IMG/VR virus record: IMGVR_UViG_3300035533_000010
Span: 1-59,990 of that record
Strand: one strand, 5' to 3'
Origin: a virus
DNA: 59,990 bases
Part shown: piece by piece, positions 1 through 22,027 of the stretch
How positions within the stretch are numbered: the stretch's first letter is position 1
How the letters are laid out: each line of letters starts with the position of its first letter
Made by a program: the position numbers and the translations under genes
Notes under the pieces: model-generated
What the model was told of the DNA's origin: nothing
Databases searched by the model: none
What the model saw: the letters and a program-made list of their open reading frames with translations, nothing else

Positions 1-127
1 ATGCAGAACAAGGTAGCACAGCTCAACGATATAGGCTATCAGGGCAAGACATGGGACCTTGACAGTACGCTCGATGCTTTAAAGGAGCATGGTCTGACCC
101 CTCAGCAGCACTATGAGCAATACGGCC
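1..127. repeat. Terminal overlap: nt 1-127 are identical to nt 59864-59990 (circular or terminally redundant molecule, unique length 59,863 bp)
   Basis: Direct comparison of both ends (atgcagaacaaggtagcacagctc...gagcaatacggcc) shows identity over all 127 nt. Identical 127-nt ends are typical of a circular molecule assembled with k=127. Confidence 0.95.
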
Positions 128-963
128 AATACGAAGGAGTGAATCACTACACGCCTTATGGCAACAGCCAGGAGGAGGCCAACCAAGCGCCTGGTCAGTC
201 TGGATCTGGACTAACGTCAACAACCCCCAGCTTGTATCCCACGCCGTTCAATATAGACGCCTATATGCAGAACAAGGTAGCACAGCTCAACGATATAGGC
301 TATCAGGGCAAGACATGGGACCTTGCCAGCACGCTCGATGCTTTCAGGGAGCATGGTCTAACCCCTCAGCAGCACTATGAGAAATACGGCCAATACGAAG
401 GAGTGAATCACTACACGCCTTACACGCCTTATGGCCACATCCAGGATACGGCCAGCCAAGATCCACCAGATGGCCACATCCAGGATACGGCCAGCCAAGC
501 GCCACCAGTAGATATTTTTCAGCCTGACAAATACCAGCAATCCAGATCTGGATTGCCCGAAGAATACCAGCTCCAAATTCTTGAAAGCCTGATTCCGAAA
601 CTTCTTGAATCCGTTGAGGGGTACGAAGGCAACATCGACAAATCCACCCAGGCGGCCCAGGAGCTTTTTGAAACTCAGTCCCGAAGGGGCATGAAAGATC
701 AGCTCCAGGGGATTTTGAACAGCCTGGCGGGAAGAAACATCCTTAACAGTTCCGTTGCCTCTGACGCAATTTCAAAAGGCATGGGTGATATTGTCCAGAC
801 CGGGGCGCAGAAGGGGTACGAATCCCAGATGAACAACGCAGCATTGAAGGCGCAACTCCCGGCAATGCTGGCTAATATTGCACAGTTGGGGCAATCTTCG
901 ACAAGCTCAGACCCGCTGGAACCGTATAAACTTTTATCGCAATATGACTGGAATCTGATGTAA
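1..963 (+). CDS. Repeat-containing virion/tail-associated protein, 3' part of the gene that starts at 59597 and wraps the junction
   Basis: It continues in frame from ATG 59597 (59864 is codon 90). It carries copies 2 and 3 of an ~88-aa repeat (YMQNKVAQLNDIGYQGKTWDL.STLDA..EHGLTPQQHYE.YGQYEG), a 13-aa tandem GHIQDTASQ.PP.x2, and a Q/S/N-rich C-terminal part. Confidence 0.7.
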   Translation: MQNKVAQLNDIGYQGKTWDLDSTLDALKEHGLTPQQHYEQYGQYEGVNHYTPYGNSQEEANQAPGQSGSGLTSTTPSLYPTPFNIDAYMQNKVAQLNDIGYQGKTWDLASTLDAFREHGLTPQQHYEKYGQYEGVNHYTPYTPYGHIQDTASQDPPDGHIQDTASQAPPVDIFQPDKYQQSRSGLPEEYQLQILESLIPKLLESVEGYEGNIDKSTQAAQELFETQSRRGMKDQLQGILNSLAGRNILNSSVASDAISKGMGDIVQTGAQKGYESQMNNAALKAQLPAMLANIAQLGQSSTSSDPLEPYKLLSQYDWNLM

Positions 964-2624
964 TGGCTGAAGACCAGAATATACTTGGTGGCCTTTCTGA
1001 TGTCAAAGGCTTGTTGGACGCAGGCAAGTGGTTGATGAATGCAGGGGGCGGGGCATCTGTTGGAACTGGTGGCCTTTTGCCCGGAGGGATAACTGCGTAT
1101 CAAGGCCCAGGCTCGGGAGCTGCGGTGGCAACTGGAAGCACGCTTGCGGCAGCAGCACCGTTTCTTGGCGTGGCGTCCTTTGTTTTGCCAAAGATACTTG
1201 GAGGTATGTTCGGGGACAAACCCAAAATCGGATTTTCCGGAACCCAACCTCTATATGGATATAACAACGGAAAGTATTATGGCCCACAGCAGGATAAAAA
1301 GACCCAAGCCAGTACAATTAAACCATCATCTGAAAAATATGATTATGTTGTCGGCGTCAGTGAAACAGGCAAAGATGGGGAAATTGAGAAGCAGTTAGTT
1401 GAGGCATTTGACCAATATTTCGACGTACTATCTTCACAAGGTATCCCTGTTAATGATCTACTGGCAAGAAATAAAAATTTTCGTTTTGGTGGGCGCCTTG
1501 ATAAAGGGACTACTCCTGAAAGTGTGCTCAATGATTTTATAGCTCATTCGTTGCCAGATATAGAAGCATATCAAGCTGGAGTGGAGCCACCCGAAAGACA
1601 GATTAGAGTTGAACCGAAGGGAACTGTAAATGGAATGGCTGGGCGCACTGCAGATGAAATGGGGATTAAGAATTCTTCCTATTCAGTGGTAGTGGGACCT
1701 GATGGTGCACAGAGAAACAAAACTGTACGTCTTTCTATAAATGATCCAAGAGTTGCTCTTATAAAGGCAGAGAAAAAAGGTCTTAGTGGCAGAAGCACCG
1801 AAGATTTACGTGGTTCGTTAACTCCTGGGTTTACATACGTTGTAGATGCATCTAAGTTACCAGGAAAAACTGCAGATGATCTAGGGCTATCTGGCGGGCT
1901 ACGTTACACAGTGCCAGACTCTGAGACTAAGGATACATCAAGCAAGGCCGGTGTGTTATCAAACGTCGGTGGTGATCAAAATATCACAGGGGGCATATTA
2001 AGCCAAAATGGAGGCAATATGAATTATTCTTACAATGCAAACGCTCCCACGGTCTGGGAAGACTATGTGAACTCTGTCTATGACCAGATGCTGTCTGAAA
2101 TGCAGAAGCAGAAAACAGGCATGACAGATGCTGTAACCAAAGCGCAGGAAGAAAGAGGATCGCTGTTGAACAATCAACAGGGGCTTCTTGATAATTTGAT
2201 TTCAGAGCTTTCCGGAAACAAAATGTCCCGGATGGTGGGAGGGCAAAAGGTCACCTGGACGCCGAAGCCAAACAGGGACACGGCTTTTGGCTTGTTTGAC
2301 AAGCAGAACACGGCCATAAACACCGGGATGGAAAACGCTAATCAGTCCATGCAGGAAGATGTGGCCTTGGCATCCAATCAGCCTGTTTTGAATTATCTGG
2401 AAAAGCTGAAAGAACTGGCCGATATGGAAACTGTTTTGTCAGCAAAAGACAAAGGGCTTGCGCTAAACCGGGATGAACTTCAGGCGAGAACAGACGCCGC
2501 AGAACCCGGTGTTCTTGATTACATCAAGGGGATCGGTACGGCAGGGGCCGGGATTTCAGATATCGTAGGTCTTGGCAAGGATGCGTGGTCAGGGCTGAAA
2601 AACATTGGCAGCAAACTTTTTTAG
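963..2624 (+). CDS. Hypothetical virion-associated protein (Gly-rich hydrophobic N-terminus, coiled-coil C-terminal half)
   Basis: 553-aa ORF. The ATG overlaps the upstream TAA by 1 nt (TAATG). It lies in the structural operon just upstream of the giant gene. No recognisable catalytic motif. Confidence 0.75.
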   Translation: MAEDQNILGGLSDVKGLLDAGKWLMNAGGGASVGTGGLLPGGITAYQGPGSGAAVATGSTLAAAAPFLGVASFVLPKILGGMFGDKPKIGFSGTQPLYGYNNGKYYGPQQDKKTQASTIKPSSEKYDYVVGVSETGKDGEIEKQLVEAFDQYFDVLSSQGIPVNDLLARNKNFRFGGRLDKGTTPESVLNDFIAHSLPDIEAYQAGVEPPERQIRVEPKGTVNGMAGRTADEMGIKNSSYSVVVGPDGAQRNKTVRLSINDPRVALIKAEKKGLSGRSTEDLRGSLTPGFTYVVDASKLPGKTADDLGLSGGLRYTVPDSETKDTSSKAGVLSNVGGDQNITGGILSQNGGNMNYSYNANAPTVWEDYVNSVYDQMLSEMQKQKTGMTDAVTKAQEERGSLLNNQQGLLDNLISELSGNKMSRMVGGQKVTWTPKPNRDTAFGLFDKQNTAINTGMENANQSMQEDVALASNQPVLNYLEKLKELADMETVLSAKDKGLALNRDELQARTDAAEPGVLDYIKGIGTAGAGISDIVGLGKDAWSGLKNIGSKLF

Positions 2625-2632
2625 GAGAAACT

Positions 2633-3928
2633 ATGGATTTCATGACACCCGCATCAGTACAAAACCTTCCCCGGTATATGGCAGAAGACCGGCAAAGGTC
2701 TTTGCTCCAAAGAGAGGAAGAGCGGTACGCCAAAGACCAGCAGGAAAGGAAAATGGTTGCTCAGTTCGGCATGGAGCTGATGTCTGTCCTTGATTCCGGC
2801 GGAGACGTCAAGGCGGGGCTGGATGGCTTGAAACAGAAATATGCCGGCAAGATGACACCTGACATGATGCAGCTTACGTCCAATATGGTGCAGCGGTTTA
2901 AGCAGGATCAGATTGCGCAGGAAGACCGGCAAAAACAGAACGTGCTTGAAACCACAGGCCTTGCTGATGCCGATGCAGCCAGTAGGATATTGGGGCAAAA
3001 GGCGGGGCTTATGGGTCCAGATTCCGCAGGCGGCACCGAATATTCGGTGCCGGTATCTCAGCAGGATCTTTTATTGAGCATGTCTCCACGGGGGCGGCTG
3101 GGTATGACTGAATCGCTTTTGGGGCGTCAGGACAAAGAGGCGGAGAGGGCACAACAAGCCAAAATGGACCAATCCCTTTTGGACTATAGAGCGGCGCAGA
3201 CTGAACAACTTGGCAAGCCCAAACGAACAGAAGCGCCAACTTCTTTTAGGGAATGGCAGCTTGCTGTCCAGAATGGGCACAAAGGCACCTACGAACAATG
3301 GGTCAAGGGCGATAAAGGCAGCATCACTCCAGGATCTTCAGAATACAACCTCAAAAAGCTCGAACATATTGCGGACGCGGAGAAAAACAACCTTACCGGC
3401 GAAGACCCTGCCAAGCTGAAGGCTATGGCTGCAACAGAGTTTGACGCCATGATGCAGGGTTGGCAAAAAGTTCACGACCCAGAGACGGGTCGGATGGGAT
3501 ATTTAACGCCCCAGGGCATCGTTGATGTTTATGGGAACCCGGTTGAGGCTGCGCCGGATGCCCCACCCCCCGGGCCAGACTCGGATAAGGGCGGTGGCAA
3601 AGCCGAAGGTCAGGGCCTTAATTTTGGTGGCGACCTTCCGTCTATTACCGACAATGACCAATTCCGGGGCAACATGGGCAGCCTTCTTGGCAAATATGGT
3701 GTCAACGAGTCAAAAGCCGTAAAGGATGCCTTAAAAATCACAAAGGGAGGCTTTAACCCCGAAAATGGCACAATTATTTTTAAGCCTCAAAATGAAAGCC
3801 ACATGAAGAAGGTTTTTATCGAACTGAGCAACAGTGGTATCAAGTTTGACGCAAAACAAAACGAGGACGGTACAATTTCCGTCTCTGTGGTAGATGAAGG
3901 CGAACCCCTTGTAAAGGTTGGGAAATAA
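2633..3928 (+). CDS. Hypothetical virion-associated protein, Q/E/K-rich
   Basis: I prefer ATG 2633 over the track start 2585. AGGAGA at 2623-2628 sits 4 nt upstream and this start removes the overlap with the previous gene (stop at 2624). 431 aa. Confidence 0.75.
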   Translation: MDFMTPASVQNLPRYMAEDRQRSLLQREEERYAKDQQERKMVAQFGMELMSVLDSGGDVKAGLDGLKQKYAGKMTPDMMQLTSNMVQRFKQDQIAQEDRQKQNVLETTGLADADAASRILGQKAGLMGPDSAGGTEYSVPVSQQDLLLSMSPRGRLGMTESLLGRQDKEAERAQQAKMDQSLLDYRAAQTEQLGKPKRTEAPTSFREWQLAVQNGHKGTYEQWVKGDKGSITPGSSEYNLKKLEHIADAEKNNLTGEDPAKLKAMAATEFDAMMQGWQKVHDPETGRMGYLTPQGIVDVYGNPVEAAPDAPPPGPDSDKGGGKAEGQGLNFGGDLPSITDNDQFRGNMGSLLGKYGVNESKAVKDALKITKGGFNPENGTIIFKPQNESHMKKVFIELSNSGIKFDAKQNEDGTISVSVVDEGEPLVKVGK

Positions 3929-6900
3929 ATGGCATCATGGCAAACGGGATGGCCCGGAGACAAGCAAAAGCCGGCCGCTTCAAATTGGAAATTGGGGTGG
4001 CCGACAGACCAGTCAGAAATAGACCAGGGGCCGGATCTGAAAATAATTGATCCGCTCCAAGAAGGCGCAAAGGATGTTGTGCGGTCCGGGCTTGGTGCGG
4101 CTAAGATGCTGGCCGATACAGCCCAGGGGTCTATGGCGGGTAATTTGAAAAAGGCCGTTTATGGTGCGGCAGACGCTGATATTTTAAAGCCGGACCCAGA
4201 CTATAAAAGGTCTGAGGGGTGGCGGGGATACGTTGAAGATGTCGTAAGGATGTCCCCCCAGGTAGGCGCACAATTAGGGGTTGCGTTGACACCTGGAGGT
4301 CTGGTTGGCAGCACCGCCTTTATGGGTTCGCAGATCGCTGGTGGAACATACGAAACCCTAAGAGAGCAAGACGTTCCAGTTGTCAGAGCAATTCAGGCCA
4401 GCCTTGCCAACGCTGCCATGCAAGCCCCGCTCGAAGCCCTTTCTTTGAACAGGGCGCTGAAGCTTTGGAAACCAACCAAAAAAGGCATGGGTGCGGCACG
4501 GGATATTGTTGGGGCAATGGGAACTGAATTTGTCACAGAATGGGCCCAGAAATACCCTGAATTGGCGACAGAGATATGGGCAAAAACAGAAGGTGCGCCA
4601 GCAGAAGACCGGGTGAACCAGTTTGTTGAACGATTTGCAGAGACGACGAAAGGCGGAATGTATGAAGGTGCGGTAGCTGCACCGTTTGGCGGTCTTGTTC
4701 GTGGTGCGTCTCTTGTTACGCAAAGAGGCGCAGAAGGACCACAGGTAGCCGGGAAAAAAGACCCCGCCCAAACCGCCATCGACTCCATCAACGGAGATCC
4801 CGAAGCAACCGCAGACGTTGACCGGAAATTGGAACAGATAATCGCCGGGGATACCCTGACCAAAGAAACTACCGATACCAGGGAAAGACCCTTTGATCCA
4901 TCCACCTACCAGGAAGCAGGCCTTGAGGATTGGGCCATGGCAACCCGGATGAACCAACCGCCCTTGACCCAGGCGCAGCAAAACGATGCCCGTATGCGCC
5001 AAATAGAAGCCGCTGACGAAGCGACCGGCAGGCAAATGGAGCAATGGCAGGGCCGGACAGTGGAAGTCCCTGAAACCGACCAGACAGAGTTTGGCAGACA
5101 GCAGGAAGAAGAATCCTATTGGGGCCAGCAACGCCGGGAGATTGAAAAACAGCAGGATGTCCGCAGGGTCCAGAACCAGTTAAATCTTATCAATAAGAAA
5201 AAACGCCCGTCCCAGGATGATCGGAAGAAAATCCAGGCCCTTGAATCCAGACTTATCGAATTGGCCGGACCAAAGGATAGGGTGAGACTGGAAGCGGCAA
5301 AACGACAGCGACAGATCGACCGTGAAGGCCAACCCAAACCCGCTCCGCCATCAAGCGAAACGGCTTACGCATTGCAGCAAATGAAAGCCGAAGCCCTTGG
5401 CAGCGAAACCAAAGGCGTTACTCAGGCCAATATGTTTCAGGATGAAACCATTGGTTTTTCTGCAAGTTCCCCCAAATGGATGCGGGATCTTAACGCCAAT
5501 ATGCCCAAAGGTCAGCTTTTTTCCAGAAAAGAAATAGCCGGGCTGATTGACAAATACACCAGCGGCCAGAAGATGACATCGAAACAGTTCGACCGCTTTC
5601 AACTTCTCAAAAATGCCGCAGACACATACCGCAAGACTGAAGGCGGCTATGTGTCCCAGGACATGGCAAACGACCTTGAGAGAAAAGGGTATGAAGTTTA
5701 CGCCGGCGCAGAATTTGAAGCCGGGGAACTGAAGCCAGGTGATAAGTTTGTGGGAGAGGTTGAAGGTGTCCGGGATGAATGGACAGTGGGAGACACCAAC
5801 GCAGATGGCGTGTTGATGAAAGACGGTGTTTCTAAACGTGTGGTGCCGTTTGATACTGTGAAAGTGGATGGGTATAAGCCGTTTGCCGGACTGGATCAGC
5901 AGATGGATGAGGCGGTTAAGGTTGACAATAATCTTGAAAAAGTAACGGATGATTCTGTTAAGGTTGACAATAAATCAACTGACAAGGAATCCTTAGATGT
6001 TCCGAAACAGCTTTTCCATGGCACGGCAGCCAAGGATTTTGAAACGTTTGAAGGAATACCGTATCTCACCGATAACCAGGAAGAAGCCCGTGCATTTTCT
6101 GAGGGCGTACATTTAGGCGGGGGTACCGGTGGAGCAAAAAGAGTTTTGCCGGTATCTCATAAACTCAACAAGGTTAAAGACATTGCCGGCAAGGTAGACG
6201 AGGCATTGTTTTTGGGGGAAGATATAGACGATGTTATTGGTTCTGAACTGAAGCAGGCCAAAAAAAATGGATATGATGCGGTTACATTCATGCACCCGCC
6301 AAGTGTCGGGGACAATGATTTCAGGGTGTACGTTCCAACCAGCAACGAGCTTGTAAGTATTGAAAAGACCACCCCGCCCACTGAGGTTCAAAAGGACACT
6401 GAGCAGCAGACCCCCGGTGCATCTGCTGACGGGGTGGCAACAAATAGATTGACCGATTTTTTAAAACAAGAAATAGGGTTAAAGTATGAAAAACAGGGCG
6501 CGACATGGCAAGATGTTGCGGCTTCTTTTTCAAAATCAAAAGACCCGTTCCGCTTTTATGAAGAAAGCAAAGATGAATTTCACCCTGATTCACACAAGGC
6601 AATATTCAAAAGGGTGGTCAAACAAGCCCTTACCGACAATAAACCCGTACCGCCCGAAGTGCTGAAGGATTACCCGGATCTTGCCCCCGCCACCTCTGCC
6701 GCAAGCGCAACGACAGGGGGCGTTTCTTCTAAAGCACAACCCGACATCCTCCCCAAATCCGGCAAACCCTTCCCCAACAAAGGCACTGCAAAGATGGCCC
6801 TTATCCGTGCCAAGGCAAAGGATACCCATGAGGTTGTGGAAGTTGATGGGGGGTTTGTGGGGAGGGCGAAGGGTGATCTGAAATTTCAGACCAGTGCTAA

Positions 6901-9900
6901 CAACAAAAACCTTGCCATCGTTCATAATCTGACTGGTGCAAATCTGAACCATGCCCTAAAGATGGGTGGCCTGCCTGTCCCGAGTACCGCAGTTATCGAC
7001 GTTGAAAAGTCAGAGTTCGATTCTTTTGGTGATATCACCCTGATTGCAGACAAAGATCAACTTGGCCCAGGGAAGGCCGGGAATAAATATTTCAATGCCG
7101 ATGTTTATTCTCCAAGGTATCCATCTGTTCAATATAAGCTGACGGCAAAAGATGAAAGAAATCTGGTTGATTTCCTGAATGACGCCTACAAGACTATTCC
7201 GAAACCGGAAACCGGCAGGATTGAAATTGACCACCCCATGAGCGTCGTCGGCAGCATGGACGGCAAAAGCGTTCTGGACCGGTTCACATTAAAAACATCC
7301 CCACTGGTTGAATATGCCTTCCTTAAAGAAAAGGGCAGGCTGCCGAAGAATGTAGATTATTCCGTGTGGGAATCCCGGCAGGCCATGAGAAAAGCCGTTG
7401 ATAAATTCGGCAGGGATAAGTTTGACGCATGGGTTGATCAGAAAATCGATACCCTTGGTATCCAGGAAGAAGAAAAGATATTCGACGGGTTCACGTATTC
7501 TGGCAACAGAAAATACCTAAAGCATGATCTTGATACGGTTGTCCGTATTCTGAAAAGAGAGTTGCAGGATGGAGAGGGGTTCAATTACGGGGTTCCCTCC
7601 ATTCGCTCAAAAGTGGCCAGGCAGTTCAGGACTGTCAAGCAGATTCAGGATAGCAGGGATGACATCATTTCCAAACAGGACATGGAAAAGGTCAAGGATG
7701 AGGTCAATAAAGAGTTTGATGAATTGTTCAATGAAGTTCAGCCATATCTGAAACATGCCCCCAGGTTTGGCGCACAGGATAATTTTTCTGAACACATTAA
7801 AGAGGCCATAGACGACCGGAATTTTGATGGCGTGTTTGGAGAGAACAGCGATTACTATGAACCAGGTGTTGATGTTGACGCGATCCGTGAGTTTGTTGGC
7901 AAACTTCAAAACCTTCCCACCGAATACTTTGAAGGGAAAATTCAAAGGGCAGTTGGCCTTGATGAGTTCGCTTATGCTATTGTTCCTGCCGGCACACCGA
8001 TAGCCACAAGAAGGAAACTTAACCAGCAAGGCATTAAGGTTCTGACCTATAAAAAGGGGGACCAGGCAGACCGGGCAGAGAAAATCAGGCAGGCGACAAA
8101 GACGGGTGGGTTAAGATTCCAAACCACCTACCACGGCACCCCCCACATTTGGCCCCCGGAACCCGGCTTCCCCCATGGCCGGCCCAGGCTGGATAAGATA
8201 GGGACCGGGGAAGGGGCTGCGGCTTATGGGTGGGGATTTTATACTGCCGAGGCGGCAGAAATCGGAGTGTACTACCACGAAGGTTTGTCAAAATCTCCTA
8301 TCCTGGAAACTGACAAATTCGACGGCGATTTCGTTATCCGTAATGGGCAAGAATATCCAATATATGAAACAGGAAAAAGCGAGCCGTATATCCTAACAGG
8401 CGGCACCTACAAACTTGATATCCCGGACCAAGTGATTCCAAAATTGCTTGATTGGGATGCGCCGCTGAGTGAGCAGAGTGAGTATGTCAAAAAGAAGATT
8501 GAACCAACCGTCAAACGCTTTGAAAAAGATATGGAGGCCAGGAACCCGGTTAACAGGAAAATAGCGAATGGTCAAGACTTATATAATTGGGTTCGGGCAG
8601 AAGAAAGCGATAAGATAGGGTGGGCGTCTTCACAACAGGCCGCCTCCGAATATCTCGCCTCCATCGGCATTCCCGGCAACCGCTATCTGGACGGCATGAG
8701 CCGTAATAGACCAACACAAATAAAGCGAGAGATCGGAGAAATAAAAGATACAATCCAAAAGCTAAAAAAAGAAGCTAAAGGAATAAAGCAAGAGATTAAT
8801 AACAACAGAGCGAACAAGGGATTGACGAAAAGATTCTTCACATCTCGTCAAACGAAAATCGAAGAAATAGAATCTGAAATAAAATATCGAGAATCAAAGG
8901 TTAAAGATTTAAAATCCGAGACTGGTAATTCAAACTATGTGATATGGGACCAGAAAGTACTCGACCAAATAGCCCTGCTTGAGCGCAACGGCGAAAAACT
9001 GGATGCAATCAGGAAGTTTCAGACTGGACAAACCCACGCCCAGTCTGGCAAACTAACCAAAAAGGAGAATACAAATGGCAGGACTCTGGCTGGAAAACGG
9101 GCTGCACCTTCAGATAAGCAACAGCGAAGCGAAAAGATTAGCTTCTCGGATGCAGAAAGACGGTTCAGCAACCTATTCGGATACCAAGATCCGGATGGTA
9201 CTACCCAACTCGTCAGAAGCATTACCAAAACCAATAGACAGGTCCAAAAGGTTGCGGAAGCATTAGGGCTTCAGGTCTTTTTCTTCAAGTCTGATCATCC
9301 CAAACTTTCCACAGCCAACGGGTTCACCAACAAGGGCGAGCGTGTTGTTTATATCAACGTCAAGGCCGATGATCCCCTGTTACCGATTGTCGGGCATGAG
9401 TTTATCCATCAGCTTGAGCGCAATCATCCGGATCTGTACGACTTCCTCCTGAACACTCTCAGGGTATCCGACAAAAACTTTGAAAGGTATGTTGCAACCC
9501 TTGTCAAATCCAGAGAAGGTCTGGACTTCGGGGAGTTGTCAGAAGCCAAGAAAGAAGAATTTTACGAAGAGTTTATTGGCGATTTTACCTTTGATCAGTT
9601 CCACAAAACTGAGTTTTGGCAGAAGCTTGTAAACCAGAACCGGACCATGACAGAGCGCATCATTGATGTTCTGCAATCCATCCTTGATAAAATCAGAAGC
9701 ATCTACCCCCGGGCAGAGATGTTTGTATCCAACCTGAGAGAATCGCAAGATGCTTTGGTTTCTGTTTTGGATGAGGTGATGGAGAGGGAGTTTGCGCCGG
9801 CACCGGGGATAAACAGCAAGGCATTCCGTGACTGGTTCGGTGACAGCAAGGTGGTGAATGAAGATGGTAAGCCGTTGGTGGTTTATCACGGCCGCTCCGA

Positions 9901-18153: not shown

Positions 18154-18332
18154 TGTTACGAGCATCAATCATTTGTTTCATAGTCGCAGCCCTGACGCTT
18201 TGGCTGATGGGTTGCACAGAACAAACCTATCAACCTTTCCCTGAAGGAGGCCAGGAAGTTCAGTCTCCCATCGGTTACGAGATCCACTGCCAGGAATTTC
18301 CAGATAGCGTTTTCTGTGAGGAGTCTGAATGA
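18153..18332 (+). CDS. Small lipoprotein (lipobox LWLMG-C), Pro/Glu-rich mature part, o-spanin-like
   Basis: I prefer the internal ATG 18153 (TAATG overlap). MLRASIICFIVAALTLWLMGCTEQ... is a signal peptide plus lipobox. The 40-aa mature part has 3 Cys. Confidence 0.6.
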   Translation: MLRASIICFIVAALTLWLMGCTEQTYQPFPEGGQEVQSPIGYEIHCQEFPDSVFCEESE

Positions 18333-18706
18333 AAAACCTGGCAAAAAATATCCATTGGGAAGTCTTAACGCATTTTGTCTATACACCAGATAAAGAACAG
18401 TTTCCTGAGTTCTTTGAACACTGGATGAGTCATGCTGATGAGGTAGAGGCAGGCCAGACTTTCCGAGATGATTGTGATGGGTTCGCGCTCACTTGTGCAG
18501 AGTTGCTTGTCAGGGGTGGCGCAGACGAAGGCAAGGTCAGTTTGGTCCGTTGTCTCACTGAAACAGGCGGCGGGCATCTTGTCTGTATGGCAGATGGCTG
18601 GCTACTTGATAACAGGCAGCGAACAGCGGTCAGGTGGGAAGACATCCCATATACTTGGCAGAAAAGTATGAAAATGGGTGAGGTGGGTATATGGCGGAAA
18701 ATATGA
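18329..18706 (+). CDS. Transglutaminase-like cysteine peptidase (BTLCP-like) candidate
   Basis: FRDDCDGFALTCAELLVRGGADEGKVSLVRC...GGGHLVCMADGWLLDNRQ matches the C...H...D layout of the bacterial transglutaminase-like cysteine proteinases (GDCEDYA / H / LDN). ATGA overlap with the upstream gene. Confidence 0.55.
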   Translation: MKNLAKNIHWEVLTHFVYTPDKEQFPEFFEHWMSHADEVEAGQTFRDDCDGFALTCAELLVRGGADEGKVSLVRCLTETGGGHLVCMADGWLLDNRQRTAVRWEDIPYTWQKSMKMGEVGIWRKI

Positions 18707-18879: not shown

Positions 18880-19148
18880 AGGCCGGAGCTTGTAAAAGGC
18901 TCCATGGTTGACCAGGGAAATGTTCAACGTTTTATGGCAAAGACAAAAAAGGAGAACATTAAAAGTTGCATAGAGAGCTAAAGACCAACGGCGGGATGCT
19001 TCCTCAGTCCCGCCCTCTTGAAGCCCGGGTTGCAGAAAACCTACAGGGGTATGGACGAAACGGGTCCGGGCAGAATGCCGCTGTGCAACAATCCCGAGGG
19101 GAGAGTTCAACCGATGCCAGGGTTGAACCGTCACCCGCCGTGTGCCCT
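18880..19148 (+). ncRNA. Omega-RNA (HEARO-like) candidate for IscB
   Basis: Hairpins seen: GGAGC/GCTCC at 18885-18903, GGCGGGA/TCCCGCC at 18990-19014, GGAC/GTCC at 19053-19067, and GTTCAACC/GGTTGAAC at 19105-19128. A second CCCGCC at 19134-19139 could form a pseudoknot. IscB guide RNAs are encoded directly upstream of the ORF. Confidence 0.55.
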
Positions 19149-20543
19149 ATGGGTGCTGTAAATGCGGAGAACGGCGTAAGCCGTGTTTTTGTACTCGACA
19201 AGAACGGTGATCCGTTGATGCCGTGCCATCCGGCCAGGGCAAGAAAGTTTCTGGCACGGGGCCGGGCCCGGGTTCACCAGATGTTTCCATTTACCATTAG
19301 ACTCGTTGACCGGATCCGGGAGAACAGTGTTGTGCAGCCGGTTAATGTTAAAATTGATCCCGGAGCCAAAACAACCGGCATGGCCGTGGTGAGACAGGAT
19401 AGTGGACATGTCCATATCATCCATCTGTCAGAATTAACCCATCGGGGCGCTGCCATCCGGAAGAAACTGGATCAAAGATCCAATTATCGGAGAAGGCGAA
19501 GGACCGCAAACCTCTGGCACAGAAAGCCCCGGTTCGATAACAGAACCCGGCCCAAAGGGTGGCTTCCGCCAAGTCTCAAATCACGGGTGGATAACACTTT
19601 ATCCTGGGTGAAAAAGTATCAAAGGATCTGCCCGGTTACAGGCATTGTCCTGGAACGGGTCCGGTTCGATACTCAGAAGCTGCAGAACCCGGATATTTCA
19701 GGGATCGAGTATCAGCAAGGCACACTGTTCGGGTATGAGGTAAAAGAATACCTGTTGGAACGATATGGCAGAAAATGTGCCTACTGCAATGGCTTGAGCA
19801 AGGATCCGGTTTTGGAGATTGAGCATTTTATCCCACGCAATCCCTCAAAAGGGGATAAGGGATCAAACCGGATCAGTAACCTGGCCATTGCCTGTAAAAC
19901 CTGTAATCAGGAATCAAAAAAGAACCTGCAGCCGGCAGATTGGATCCGCCTTTTATCCAGGTCACAAAAAAAGATAGATCAGGTCCGGGCCCAAAATGCT
20001 ACCCGATTTCTGGAAGGGAAAAGGCCCTCCCTTGCATCAACCGCAGCGGTAAACGCCACCAGGAACGCTATCTTTTTTGAACTCAGGGACCTGGGCCTGC
20101 CGGTAGAATGCTCAACCGGTGGCAGGACCAAATACAACCGGTCCCGGCTGGATATACCCAAAACCCATTGTCTGGATGCTGCCTGCACCGGCTATGTGGA
20201 TTCGGTATCCGGCTGGAAACAAAACGTGTTCCTGATAAAGGCCATGGGCCGAGGCAGTTATCAAAGAACCCGTGTGGACAAATACGGTTTTCCCCGGGGA
20301 TACCTGATGGATCAGAAAACGGTAAAGGGTTTTGCCACCGGGGATATGGTTAAAGCGATCGTTCCTACTGGTAAGAAGAAAGGAACGTATATTGGCAGAG
20401 TGGCTGTCCGGAAAACCGGCAGCTTTAATATTCAAACCAGGGAAGCTGTGGTCCAGGGTGTATCCTGGAAACATTGCAAACTCATATCCCGTCAGAACGG
20501 GTATAGTTTTCAGTGTGCAAGCCAAGTTTCCTCCCCGGCCTGA
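19149..20543 (+). CDS. iscB: IscB RNA-guided endonuclease (PLMP, split RuvC, HNH, C-terminal TAM-interaction-like domain)
   Basis: Motifs in order: VFVLDKNGDPLMPCHPARARKFL; VKIDPGAKTTGMAVV; NYRRRRRTANLWHRKPRF; IVLERVRFDTQ; CAYCNG..LEIEHFIPRN..NLAIACKTCNQ; THCLDAACTG; GFATGDMVKAIVP..GRVAVRKTGSFNI. I prefer ATG 19149 because the track start 18966 would translate the structured leader. Confidence 0.85.
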   Translation: MGAVNAENGVSRVFVLDKNGDPLMPCHPARARKFLARGRARVHQMFPFTIRLVDRIRENSVVQPVNVKIDPGAKTTGMAVVRQDSGHVHIIHLSELTHRGAAIRKKLDQRSNYRRRRRTANLWHRKPRFDNRTRPKGWLPPSLKSRVDNTLSWVKKYQRICPVTGIVLERVRFDTQKLQNPDISGIEYQQGTLFGYEVKEYLLERYGRKCAYCNGLSKDPVLEIEHFIPRNPSKGDKGSNRISNLAIACKTCNQESKKNLQPADWIRLLSRSQKKIDQVRAQNATRFLEGKRPSLASTAAVNATRNAIFFELRDLGLPVECSTGGRTKYNRSRLDIPKTHCLDAACTGYVDSVSGWKQNVFLIKAMGRGSYQRTRVDKYGFPRGYLMDQKTVKGFATGDMVKAIVPTGKKKGTYIGRVAVRKTGSFNIQTREAVVQGVSWKHCKLISRQNGYSFQCASQVSSPA

Positions 20544-20963: not shown

Positions 20964-21332
20964 ATGACACACACCAGCACAATAATCCACATGAGGAACG
21001 TTCCCGGGAGTCCAAGGAACCGGGCCCTGGACTTGCCGTTGCCATACAAGAAAATGGACGGCACCATGGGTCTGATCCCGGCTGATTTTGAATGGGATGG
21101 GTCATCCGTGCCGTGGATCTTTCAAGGGTTCTTTCCCAGACATCGGCACCCTATTGCAAGCTGCCGGCATGACTGGCGATGCAGGAACGCCAGGACGAAA
21201 GCAGAACGGTTGTTTGCTGATCAGGAATTTGAAAAAGACGTAGGGACTACAAGCTGGTGGATCACACAGAAAGCAGGATATATCGGGGTTAGAATCGGAG
21301 CATTTTTTGGAATCGGAGTTTACAAAGACTGA
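20964..21332 (+). CDS. DUF1353-like phage protein
   Basis: GLIPADFEWDGSSVPWIF..FFPRHRHPIASCRHDWRC...AERLFADQEFEKDV resembles the DUF1353 signature (F.TDG.S.P ... HD ... AD..F). GAGGTG SD. Confidence 0.55.
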   Translation: MTHTSTIIHMRNVPGSPRNRALDLPLPYKKMDGTMGLIPADFEWDGSSVPWIFQGFFPRHRHPIASCRHDWRCRNARTKAERLFADQEFEKDVGTTSWWITQKAGYIGVRIGAFFGIGVYKD

Positions 21333-21634: not shown

Positions 21635-22027
21635 ATGAAAAAATTCCACTATTCCACCAGATCCATCGAAAACCTTTACCGGGTCCATCCGGATCTTGTG
21701 GCCTGTGTGACTCTTGCGCTTTACAAATACACTCCGATTGATTTTATGGTGCTTGAAGGGCTGCGGTCTGAAAAAGACCAGCAAATTTATTTTGATGAAG
21801 GCGTCAGCCAAACGCTGAAATCAAAACACCTGATGCAAAAAGATGGGACCGCCCACGCTGTGGATTTGGCGCCGATTATCGATGGGGCGATACCATGGGA
21901 CAAATGGGAATACTTTGAACAGATCAACGAGGCGATGGTTAAGGCCGCTGAAGACTTGAACATATTTATCACCTGGGGCGGGAACTGGAAGATGAAAGAC
22001 GGTCCGCACTTTCAGTTGATGAGGTGA
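21635..22027 (+). CDS. Endolysin, M15-family zinc peptidase (VanY / L-Ala-D-Glu peptidase-like)
   Basis: SKHLMQKDGTAHAVDLAP and WGGNWKMKDGPHFQL match the H..D and D..H metal and catalytic motifs of M15 peptidases. GAGGTG SD. Confidence 0.8.
   Translation: MKKFHYSTRSIENLYRVHPDLVACVTLALYKYTPIDFMVLEGLRSEKDQQIYFDEGVSQTLKSKHLMQKDGTAHAVDLAPIIDGAIPWDKWEYFEQINEAMVKAAEDLNIFITWGGNWKMKDGPHFQLMR

Follow-up and report, generated by a model that had tools for sequence, protein, structure and literature searches.

A giant polyvalent protein with a conserved scaffold and predicted ADP-ribosyltransferase, ribonuclease and peptidase modules in a complete Bcep22/933W-type phage genome

We analysed the IMG/VR virus record IMGVR_UViG_3300035533_000010 over its positions 1 to 59,990 (59,990 nucleotides, hereafter the window), in which a single open reading frame (ORF) on the + strand, at 3929..15016, encodes a protein of 3,695 amino acids (aa). 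This giant protein is probably best explained as a polyvalent protein of the phage type, which would be expressed late, packed in the capsid and expelled with the DNA or just ahead of it. Comparison with its relatives showed that it is made up of conserved ends and a variable middle, that is, a delivery chassis with swappable enzyme cargo. Judged by profile matches and conserved motifs, the cargo comprises four ART-PolyVal domains of predicted ADP-ribosyltransferases (ARTs; modules A, C, D and E), a divergent ART-like domain (module B), a PBECR5 domain with a companion domain, an LPD23 domain and two candidate metallopeptidases. The kind of protein has been known since 2017; this set of cargo on a Bcep22/933W-type scaffold is unreported.

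The end of the window repeats its own start as an exact terminal direct repeat of 127 bp (1-127 identical to 59864-59990), indicating a complete genome of 59,863 bp that is circular or circularly permuted. The giant ORF, whose ATG sits immediately after the stop codon of the preceding ORF, accounts for 18.5% of this genome; coordinates, length and share were all as given in the initial annotation. A megablast search of 50,697 phage records with the first 20 kb as query detected no nucleotide-level relative; no tRNA genes were found in the genome and no terminator-like site was found after the giant gene. The initial annotation had pointed to five modules opening with (F/Y)HG(T/R), and the motif [FY]HG[TR] indeed occurred exactly five times in the giant protein (nt 6014, 8129, 9884, 11255 and 11636; aa 696, 1401, 1986, 2443 and 2570), each time where it had been placed and against 0.034 occurrences expected from composition. 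HExxH occurred twice (HEFIH at nt 9395, aa 1823; HELQH at nt 10748, aa 2274), with 0.055 expected. The motif observation is real and lies far beyond chance. A tail thought to be common to three modules was recovered in three copies of G[YHF]D[AG]V[TI]F (KKNGYDAVTF at aa 778, KKKGHDGVIF at aa 2076 and KRRGFDGVIF at aa 2687), with two small deviations from its description: the third copy reads KRRG and not K(K/N)G, and the '...V.F...QIK' ending is confined to modules C and E, module A ending in '...LVSIEK'. The interpretation built on these motifs is partly supported: its core is right, and four of its points need qualification.

The central claim, that the ORF encodes a multi-effector protein of the polyvalent kind defined by Iyer et al. 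(2017), was supported by the curated profiles. A Pfam scan of the whole protein returned LPD38 (136 bits), ART-PolyVal (119 bits, over two stretches), PBECR5 (82 bits) and LPD23 (43 bits), all above their curated cut-offs; the four families were defined from polyvalent proteins, and LPD38 is confined to those of the phage type (Iyer et al., 2017; PMC5512222). A scan of protein windows, as the initial annotation had proposed, was run at 400 aa and used to split the ART signal by module (cut-off for ART-PolyVal, PF18760, 31.2 bits); it found ART-PolyVal, PBECR5 and LPD families. Neither HExxH module hit the Pfam model of polyvalent metallopeptidases. An NCBIfam scan of the whole protein returned nothing, and a phmmer search of it against the sequences of the Protein Data Bank (PDB) returned chance hits only. 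Three features by which polyvalent proteins are recognised were present, namely one large polypeptide with several unrelated effector domains, signature LPD and effector families above threshold including the phage-only LPD38, and a location among late virion genes, with the large terminase (TerL, 46317), portal (47986) and capsid (51986) genes before it and a tail-fibre-like ORF (15296) after it. Its placement at the end of the structural operon was only approximate: the gene does lie in the late virion block, but ORFs of 93 and 582 aa follow it on the same strand.

The predicted catalytic residues of ART-PolyVal domains are a His in strand 1, a Tyr in strand 2 and an Asp in strand 5 (Iyer et al., 2017; PMC5512222). 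The threshold was passed on their own score by module C (9854..10318, + strand as for all modules below, aa 1976-2130; YHGR...SFFSDN...GHDGVIF...PTQIKS; 65.5 bits) and module E (11606..12118, aa 2560-2730; YHGT...GIYFTEDE...GFDGVIF...NQIK; 72.7 bits) only. Module A (5984..6448, aa 686-840; FHGT...PYLTDN...GYDAVTF; 15 bits) and the compact module D (11231..11533, aa 2435-2535; YHGT...SFPFFAFD...RGEDGIWRIP; 23.3 bits) remained below it, and module B gave no hit. Module A could be aligned over its whole length with 27 ART-PolyVal domains from other giant proteins. The match of module D covered profile positions 7-56 only, the first third of the profile and the N-terminal half; it scored 13 bits against an independent profile, and its possible Asp strand, RGEDGIWRIP, was spotted by eye only. 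Modules A and E retain all three residues (H-Y-D). In modules C and D, as in many members of the family, a Phe takes the place of the Tyr, and module B has the His and the Tyr, with an uncertain third residue. Pairwise phmmer comparison of the five ART-like modules gave no significant match, which argues for old, separately diverged domains and not for recent internal duplications. In the PDB, the ART profile matched a PARP13 domain with an E-value of 0.58. In tblastn searches, domains related to module C were also seen in proteins of crAss-like phages that carry the annotation 'putative RNA-polymerase subunit', in Pseudomonas phage F116, and in Caulobacter phage genes annotated 'lysis protein'; these labels probably describe neighbouring domains or are wrong.

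Between modules A and B lies the predicted ribonuclease (RNase) domain PBECR5 (6881..7444, aa 985-1172; Pfam PF18814, 82-88 bits against a cut-off of 25), followed by a companion domain (7466..8113, aa 1180-1395; phrog_22978) that always comes after PBECR5 in the relatives, the two being found together in five giant proteins. LPD23 (10331..10507, aa 2135-2193; Pfam PF18838, 43-47 bits) lies directly after module C. Two small elements were also noticed upstream of PBECR5. The motif (A)L.EGKPVP.EVLKDYPDL at nt 6605-6680 (aa ~893-918), followed by a linker rich in Pro, Ala, Ser and Thr, was found again with its linker in 10 or more unrelated giant polyvalent proteins and might mark the border of a domain or serve as a signal for processing. 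Also recurrent is the element SGKPF..KG.A..AL.RAKA..THE.V.V.GG.VGR (aa 944-980), which is weakly present even in gp75 of phage Bcep22.

Both HExxH sites had been read as zincin sites in the initial annotation. Their positions were correct, the zincin fold is a candidate reading, and the Pfam and PDB hits stayed below threshold. Both modules represent conserved families with members in other giant proteins. Module 1 (9041..9853, aa 1705-1975, with HEFIH at aa 1823) is a candidate gluzincin-type metallopeptidase. In an alignment of 11 sequences, G-H-E-x-x-H and a Glu 57 residues downstream were invariant, which is the gluzincin pattern, and the module matched phrog_87 'metallo-protease' (E 1e-5). 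Its profile found as best PDB match a thermolysin-like neutral protease at the HExxH site (E 1.2, not significant), and by BLASTP it fell on the HELVH region of the N4 virion RNA polymerase (vRNAP; E 2.6, not significant), a region that Iyer et al. placed among the polyvalent metallopeptidases (PMC5512222). Module 2 (10526..11233, aa 2200-2435, with HELQH at aa 2274) is likewise a candidate metallopeptidase, for which an alignment of 10 sequences showed HExQHxxQxxEGF and a later Y..GE.EAR to be invariant. Weak Pfam matches were obtained to DUF6782 (15 bits) and M78 (12.7 bits), and the best PDB match of the profile was IrrE (E 0.19, not significant). From these residue patterns, metallopeptidases with a candidate zincin fold are the likeliest identity of both modules.

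Module B (8111..9043, aa 1395-1705; YHGTPHIWPPEPGFPHGRPRLDKIGTGEG...GFYTAE...IPGNRYLDG...NYVIWDQ, with a long helical hairpin insert) had been counted with the other HGT modules. This proved reasonable, given its fold and profile matches, but the evidence is weaker than for modules C and E. When 1.84 billion representative proteins were searched exhaustively by HMMER, with aa 1395-1975 as query, 7,331 clusters were retrieved at E <= 0.001; the matches to module B comprised giant proteins of 2-7 thousand aa as well as stand-alone proteins of ~400 aa. The family of 7,331 clusters, formed at 50% identity, is mostly from marine phages and often stands alone between terminase and portal genes. In marine (Tara) phage contigs of ~40 kb, stand-alone genes of this kind (~400-440 aa) had the large terminase gene on one side and the portal gene on the other (L003 6001-7320; L004 3144-4463), and some family members were fused to GNAT acetyltransferases. 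Invariant positions of the family are the strand-1 HG, a GRPRLDK/GTGEG loop, GFY, LDIPD...LDWD, IPGxxYxD and NYV(T/I)WDQ. A Pfam scan of 26 members gave no shared family, Pfam has no model for the module, and the family profile found nothing among the PDB sequences. In a confident AlphaFold2 (AF2) model based on 84 sequences (mean predicted local distance difference test score, pLDDT, 86; predicted template-modelling score 0.77), strand 1 holds the His and strand 2 the Tyr, a helix comes next, and the long helical hairpin is an insert. Foldseek returned no significant match of this model to the PDB; among the non-significant ones, exotoxin A ranked third (E 1.3) and a PE-like toxin sixth (E 2.2), both of them ARTs of the H-Y-E type, and matches to BAR and LSD1-tower structures were due to the helical hairpin. 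Against predicted viral structures (BFVD), the model matched proteins named 'ART-PolyVal-like domain-containing protein' in UniProt (E 2.9e-9 and 4.3e-9, probability 1.0; template-modelling score about 0.5, 18-19% identity). Alignment of the ART and module B alignments by hhalign gave an E-value of 3.2e-4 and a probability of 39% over 42 columns, covering strand 1, strand 2 and the helix. A local jackhmmer search seeded with module E recruited module B as well (independent E-value 2e-8), a match that we give little weight because the local database consisted mostly of module B proteins and the profile may have drifted. We conclude from the model and these comparisons that module B appears to be a divergent ART-PolyVal-like domain, with weaker support than modules C and E.

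The conserved ends frame this cargo. The N-terminal module (4166..4828, aa ~80-300) is rich in Gly and Ala and moderately hydrophobic (hydropathy 1.13 at aa 116), and local phmmer searches found it again at the N-terminal ends of three giant proteins with the same C-terminal module (P0101, P0022 and P0028, at their aa ~117-340). It matched neither Pfam nor PHROGs, a BLASTP comparison between the N-terminal 400 aa and a further protein (P0014) gave nothing, and a database search with aa 1-330 returned one hit only. The C-terminal scaffold (12116..15013, aa 2730-3695, ~960 aa) is conserved and mostly alpha-helical, and includes the LPD38 domain (14138..14713, aa 3404-3595; Pfam PF18857, 136 bits). 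Just upstream of LPD38 are two moderately hydrophobic helices (13940..14110, aa 3338-3394) with an invariant LYLFxNAxxQGS-type motif. The initial annotation had called these stretches membrane-like. Nowhere is the protein more hydrophobic, yet the values are moderate (Kyte-Doolittle means over 19 residues of 1.26 and 1.02), and the stretches also hold invariant polar residues (listed as F, N, Q and G). A tblastn search with the last 895 residues matched 337 phage records, from 933W/Stx-type, Vibrio, Ralstonia and Burkholderia phages; the 933W/Stx-type matches were annotated 'LPD5 domain-containing protein' and showed 31% identity. The profiles phrog_14770, phrog_616 and phrog_10691 (2,793, 3,427 and 3,925 positions) matched only via their own C-terminal ends. 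An AF2 model of the scaffold (16 sequences, 896 aa) was helical with a pLDDT of 69, and its Foldseek comparison with the PDB (best E 0.23, template-modelling score <= 0.1, all helical transporters) was uninformative.

What lies between the ends varies among the relatives. Of the metagenomic proteins sharing the C-terminal module, one (P0101) combines the N-terminal module with the module-1 peptidase and a single ART, and another (P0019) carries ddrB-ParB, LPD1, the module-1 peptidase and an ART. Bcep22 gp75 (4,602 aa) shares only aa 2970-3576 of the giant protein by BLASTP (24% identity, E 1e-42), with LPD38 in both; its cargo of lytic transglycosylase (SLT), Eco57I-type methylase, SNF2/DEAD helicase and LPD3 is entirely missing from the giant protein. 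The junction of modules D and E is also contained in a fragment that is 85% identical (P0003), which rules out an assembly artefact as the source of the module order.

The capsid protein was 31-36% identical to the capsids of Bcep22, BcepIL02, DC1 and JC1 (Lessievirus), and likewise to those of Klebsiella phages LASTA and SopranoGao, Ralstonia phage Heva, Sinorhizobium phage PBC5 and Ochrobactrum phage POI1126. These sequence similarities place it among the Bcep22/933W-type podoviruses and not in the N4 group. A capsid type shared with N4-like phages had been assumed in the initial annotation; this received no support at the sequence level, as neither capsid nor portal nor giant protein gave a significant match to N4 by BLASTP or tblastn.

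Three ORFs directly upstream of the giant gene share with it a feature of composition. They encode proteins of 409 aa (start at 59597, across the circular junction, 3' part 1..963), 553 aa (963..2624) and 447 aa (2585..3928, abutting the giant gene), all on the + strand and all candidate ejection proteins by their cysteine count. Together with the giant protein they contain no cysteine in 5,104 residues, compared with 2-17 cysteines in each of the other sizeable ORFs of the window. The 553-aa protein has a Gly-rich N-terminus and then a strong transmembrane-like segment, LAAAAPFLGVASFVLPKIL (aa 61-79, hydropathy 1.81), that recalls the membrane-active N4 gp51 and gp52 (PMC13434306). At the N-terminus of the 409-aa protein we noticed a tandem repeat of ~45 aa, Y.Q.KVA.LN..GYQGKTWDL.STLDA....GLTP.QHY.QYG. 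Cysteine-free as well are gp50, gp51 and gp52 of N4 and gp75, gp74 and gp70 of Bcep22. Suppression of cysteine has been described as a conserved feature of the ejection operon of the Schitoviridae and ascribed to passage through the oxidising periplasm (PMC11445570); the signature seems to extend from there to the unrelated Bcep22-type podovirus group. Overall, the four genes in a row have the appearance of an ejection gene set, with the giant protein as its last and largest member. JC1 gp69, the homologue of Bcep22 gp75, was identified in CsCl-purified virions by 51 unique peptides, with the second-best score (PMC9144972). By analogy with such homologues, and in line with the cysteine-free signature, the giant protein is probably packed into the virion and injected with the DNA. 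The domain identities, the organisation into chassis and cargo, the late position and the lack of cysteine were read from the data presented here; presence in the virion is taken from the literature on homologues.

Delivery and action of such a protein might proceed as follows. The chain and the three cysteine-free upstream proteins would pass the portal, the tail channel and the periplasm either unfolded or as beads on a string, the latter as proposed for the N4 vRNAP (PMC13434306), whose mode of delivery is likely the same. The terminal modules and the upstream proteins may build a trans-envelope conduit or dock to one. In the host, the HExxH peptidase modules might cut the chain into units by self-cleavage, the ARTs could then modify host macromolecules with NAD+, and the PBECR5 RNase could cut host or defence RNAs, with the net effect that defence would be disarmed and the host taken over before phage genes are expressed. 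As to the target of the ARTs, host RNA polymerase is a guess prompted by T4 Alt, the model for virion-delivered ARTs, which modifies host RNA polymerase and other proteins on entry. Alt differs in being a single-domain enzyme of the R-S-E clade, whereas those of the giant protein belong to the H-Y-D (diphtheria toxin/PARP-like) type. We would further entertain, tentatively, two more novel readings: that the N- and C-terminal modules are a generic chassis, functionally like the terminal domains of the N4 vRNAP, and that module B represents a new and very abundant ART-like clade, possibly with a different third residue, chemistry and target. If so, the chassis would thread essentially any enzyme cassette into the host across the Bcep22/933W supergroup.

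Several observations weigh against an injected multi-enzyme protein. The upstream ORFs had no match in Pfam, PHROGs or the phage collection, nor to Bcep22, N4 or known ejection proteins. The two C-terminal stretches fall short of the hydrophobicity of classical transmembrane helices, and with a model of pLDDT 69 and no structural relative the role proposed for the scaffold is a conjecture. Neither HExxH module matched the Pfam model of polyvalent metallopeptidases, and their profile hits in the PDB were not significant. The strand-2 Tyr is missing from modules C and D, and module D is minimal, so that some modules may be inactive. No experimental work on ART-PolyVal was found in the literature searched, and the activity of the family remains a prediction. 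To our knowledge, none of the ART-PolyVal, PBECR5 or polyvalent-type HExxH domains has yet been proved active in biochemical work, and their names are predictions.

One alternative is a mainly structural protein, a giant internal core or ejection protein serving the channel or the organisation of the DNA, in which the ART-like and HExxH modules are degenerate, non-catalytic spacers. In its favour, the strongest conservation is in the non-enzymatic C-terminal scaffold, Phe replaces the strand-2 Tyr in modules C and D, of which D is truncated, the five ART-like modules have diverged too far for mutual detection by phmmer, and the cysteine-free signature marks ejection and not enzyme function. 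We nevertheless regard this alternative as unlikely. H-Y-D is intact in modules A and E, and HExxH and the Glu are invariant among the homologues of both peptidase modules; that domains which evolve fast have kept their catalytic residues speaks for activity. These domains also exist as stand-alone phage proteins of ~400 aa, and the relatives swap in a methylase, a helicase, a transglycosylase or ParB, which would make little sense for spacers.

The C-terminal homology to Bcep22 gp75 also raises the question of a DarB-like anti-restriction protein that shields the incoming DNA from type I restriction, since gp75 is annotated 'DarB-like antirestriction', relatives in Burkholderia, Ralstonia and Serratia phages are labelled in the same way, and counter-defence is the general role expected of polyvalent proteins. 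The giant proteins of this type, Bcep22 gp75, BcepIL02 gp76 and JC1 gp69 ('DarB-like', Lessievirus) and the 2,793-aa protein of 933W/Stx phages, share with the one described here a ~700-900-aa LPD38 scaffold (24-31% identity), a position behind cysteine-free ORFs in the late part of the virion genes, and a related capsid (~34% identity), and those of Bcep22 and JC1 are virion components (PMC9144972). The giant protein differs in having no transglycosylase, methylase, helicase or LPD3, and its upstream ORFs are unrelated at the BLAST level. The N6-adenine methyltransferase and SNF2/DEAD helicase of Bcep22 gp75 are thus absent, and the part held in common is the non-enzymatic scaffold only, which makes a DarB-like function very improbable. 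As only the C-terminal module is shared and the cargo is different, the name 'DarB-like antirestriction' should not be transferred to the giant protein.

The initial annotation had further noted that the giant gene sits where N4-like phages carry their virion RNA polymerase. This holds as an analogy of gene order and cysteine-free signature and is not new, the N4 vRNAP itself being one kind of polyvalent protein for Iyer et al. (PMC5512222). The late genes run here from TerL (46317) through portal (47986) and capsid (51986) to the three ORFs and the giant gene; the late strand of N4 runs from TerL (gp68) through portal (gp59) and capsid (gp56) to gp52, gp51 and gp50 (vRNAP), and that of Bcep22 from terminase, portal and capsid through tail genes to internal and virion proteins and gp75. 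Like the giant protein, N4 gp50 is giant, cysteine-free and HExxH-containing, and the last of a cysteine-free ejection set (with gp51 and gp52) late in the virion operon; the giant protein differs in having no polymerase module, and neither it nor the capsid and portal shows sequence similarity to N4. The absence of T7/N4-type RNA polymerase motifs was borne out on every count: no RNA polymerase family matched in Pfam even at E <= 1, the search of PDB sequences did not hit the N4 mini-vRNAP, BLASTP against N4 gp50 was not significant and no DxDGD-type or T7-type motif was found. No other ORF of the genome was both large and unannotated enough to hold a T7-like polymerase, the 663-aa and 628-aa ORFs having no Pfam hit. 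A cryptic N4- or crAss-type virion RNA polymerase, diverged beyond recognition and doing the job of N4 gp50, would fit the size (3,695 against 3,500 aa), the position in the late block, the lack of cysteine, the HExxH module and the ART-C-like domain in crAss-like proteins annotated 'putative RNA-polymerase subunit', but can practically be dismissed, since beside these negative searches the longest stretch of the giant protein to which no domain was assigned measures 385 aa against the ~1,100 aa of the polymerase module, and the 896-aa C-terminal model is helical and matched no polymerase.

As a probable polyvalent protein of the phage type, the giant protein shares with those already described (PMC5512222) the giant polypeptide encoded among virion genes, the multiple ART-PolyVal domains, the PBECR RNase, the HExxH candidates and the LPDs including LPD38. 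Different are the combination of four ARTs, ART-like module B, PBECR5, two HExxH modules, LPD23 and LPD38, which is new as an instance, the HExxH modules that miss the Pfam polyvalent metallopeptidase model, and a module B for which Pfam has no model. The current picture of polyvalent proteins is left unchanged, with a clean example added. Its complete 59.9-kb genome points to a lineage of short-tailed phages in which the delivery scaffold is constant and the injected enzymes, by prediction, are exchanged: predicted ADP-ribosyltransferases, RNase and peptidases here, and a DarB-like methylase and helicase in cultured relatives. The cysteine-free signature is usable for finding ejection gene sets outside the N4 family, and module B offers an abundant, uncurated and well-folding domain family of biochemical interest.

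Downstream of the giant gene and on the same strand lie the 93-aa ORF (15018..15299) and the 582-aa tail-fibre-like ORF (15296..17044). The latter gave hits to tail-protein PHROGs and is probably a tail fibre or receptor-binding protein; it also matched Pfam E1_FCCH (ubiquitin-activating enzyme) with 43 bits at aa 380-436 and has 11 cysteines, unlike its upstream neighbours. Between the tail-fibre-like and lysis genes, the late block contains two genes of the HNH/endonuclease VII type (17117-17716 and 18966-20543), one of which matches phrog_2214 (E 1e-98). Around them lie a BTLCP-like cysteine peptidase ORF (18329-18706), a DUF1353 ORF (20964-21332) and an M15 endolysin (21635-22027).

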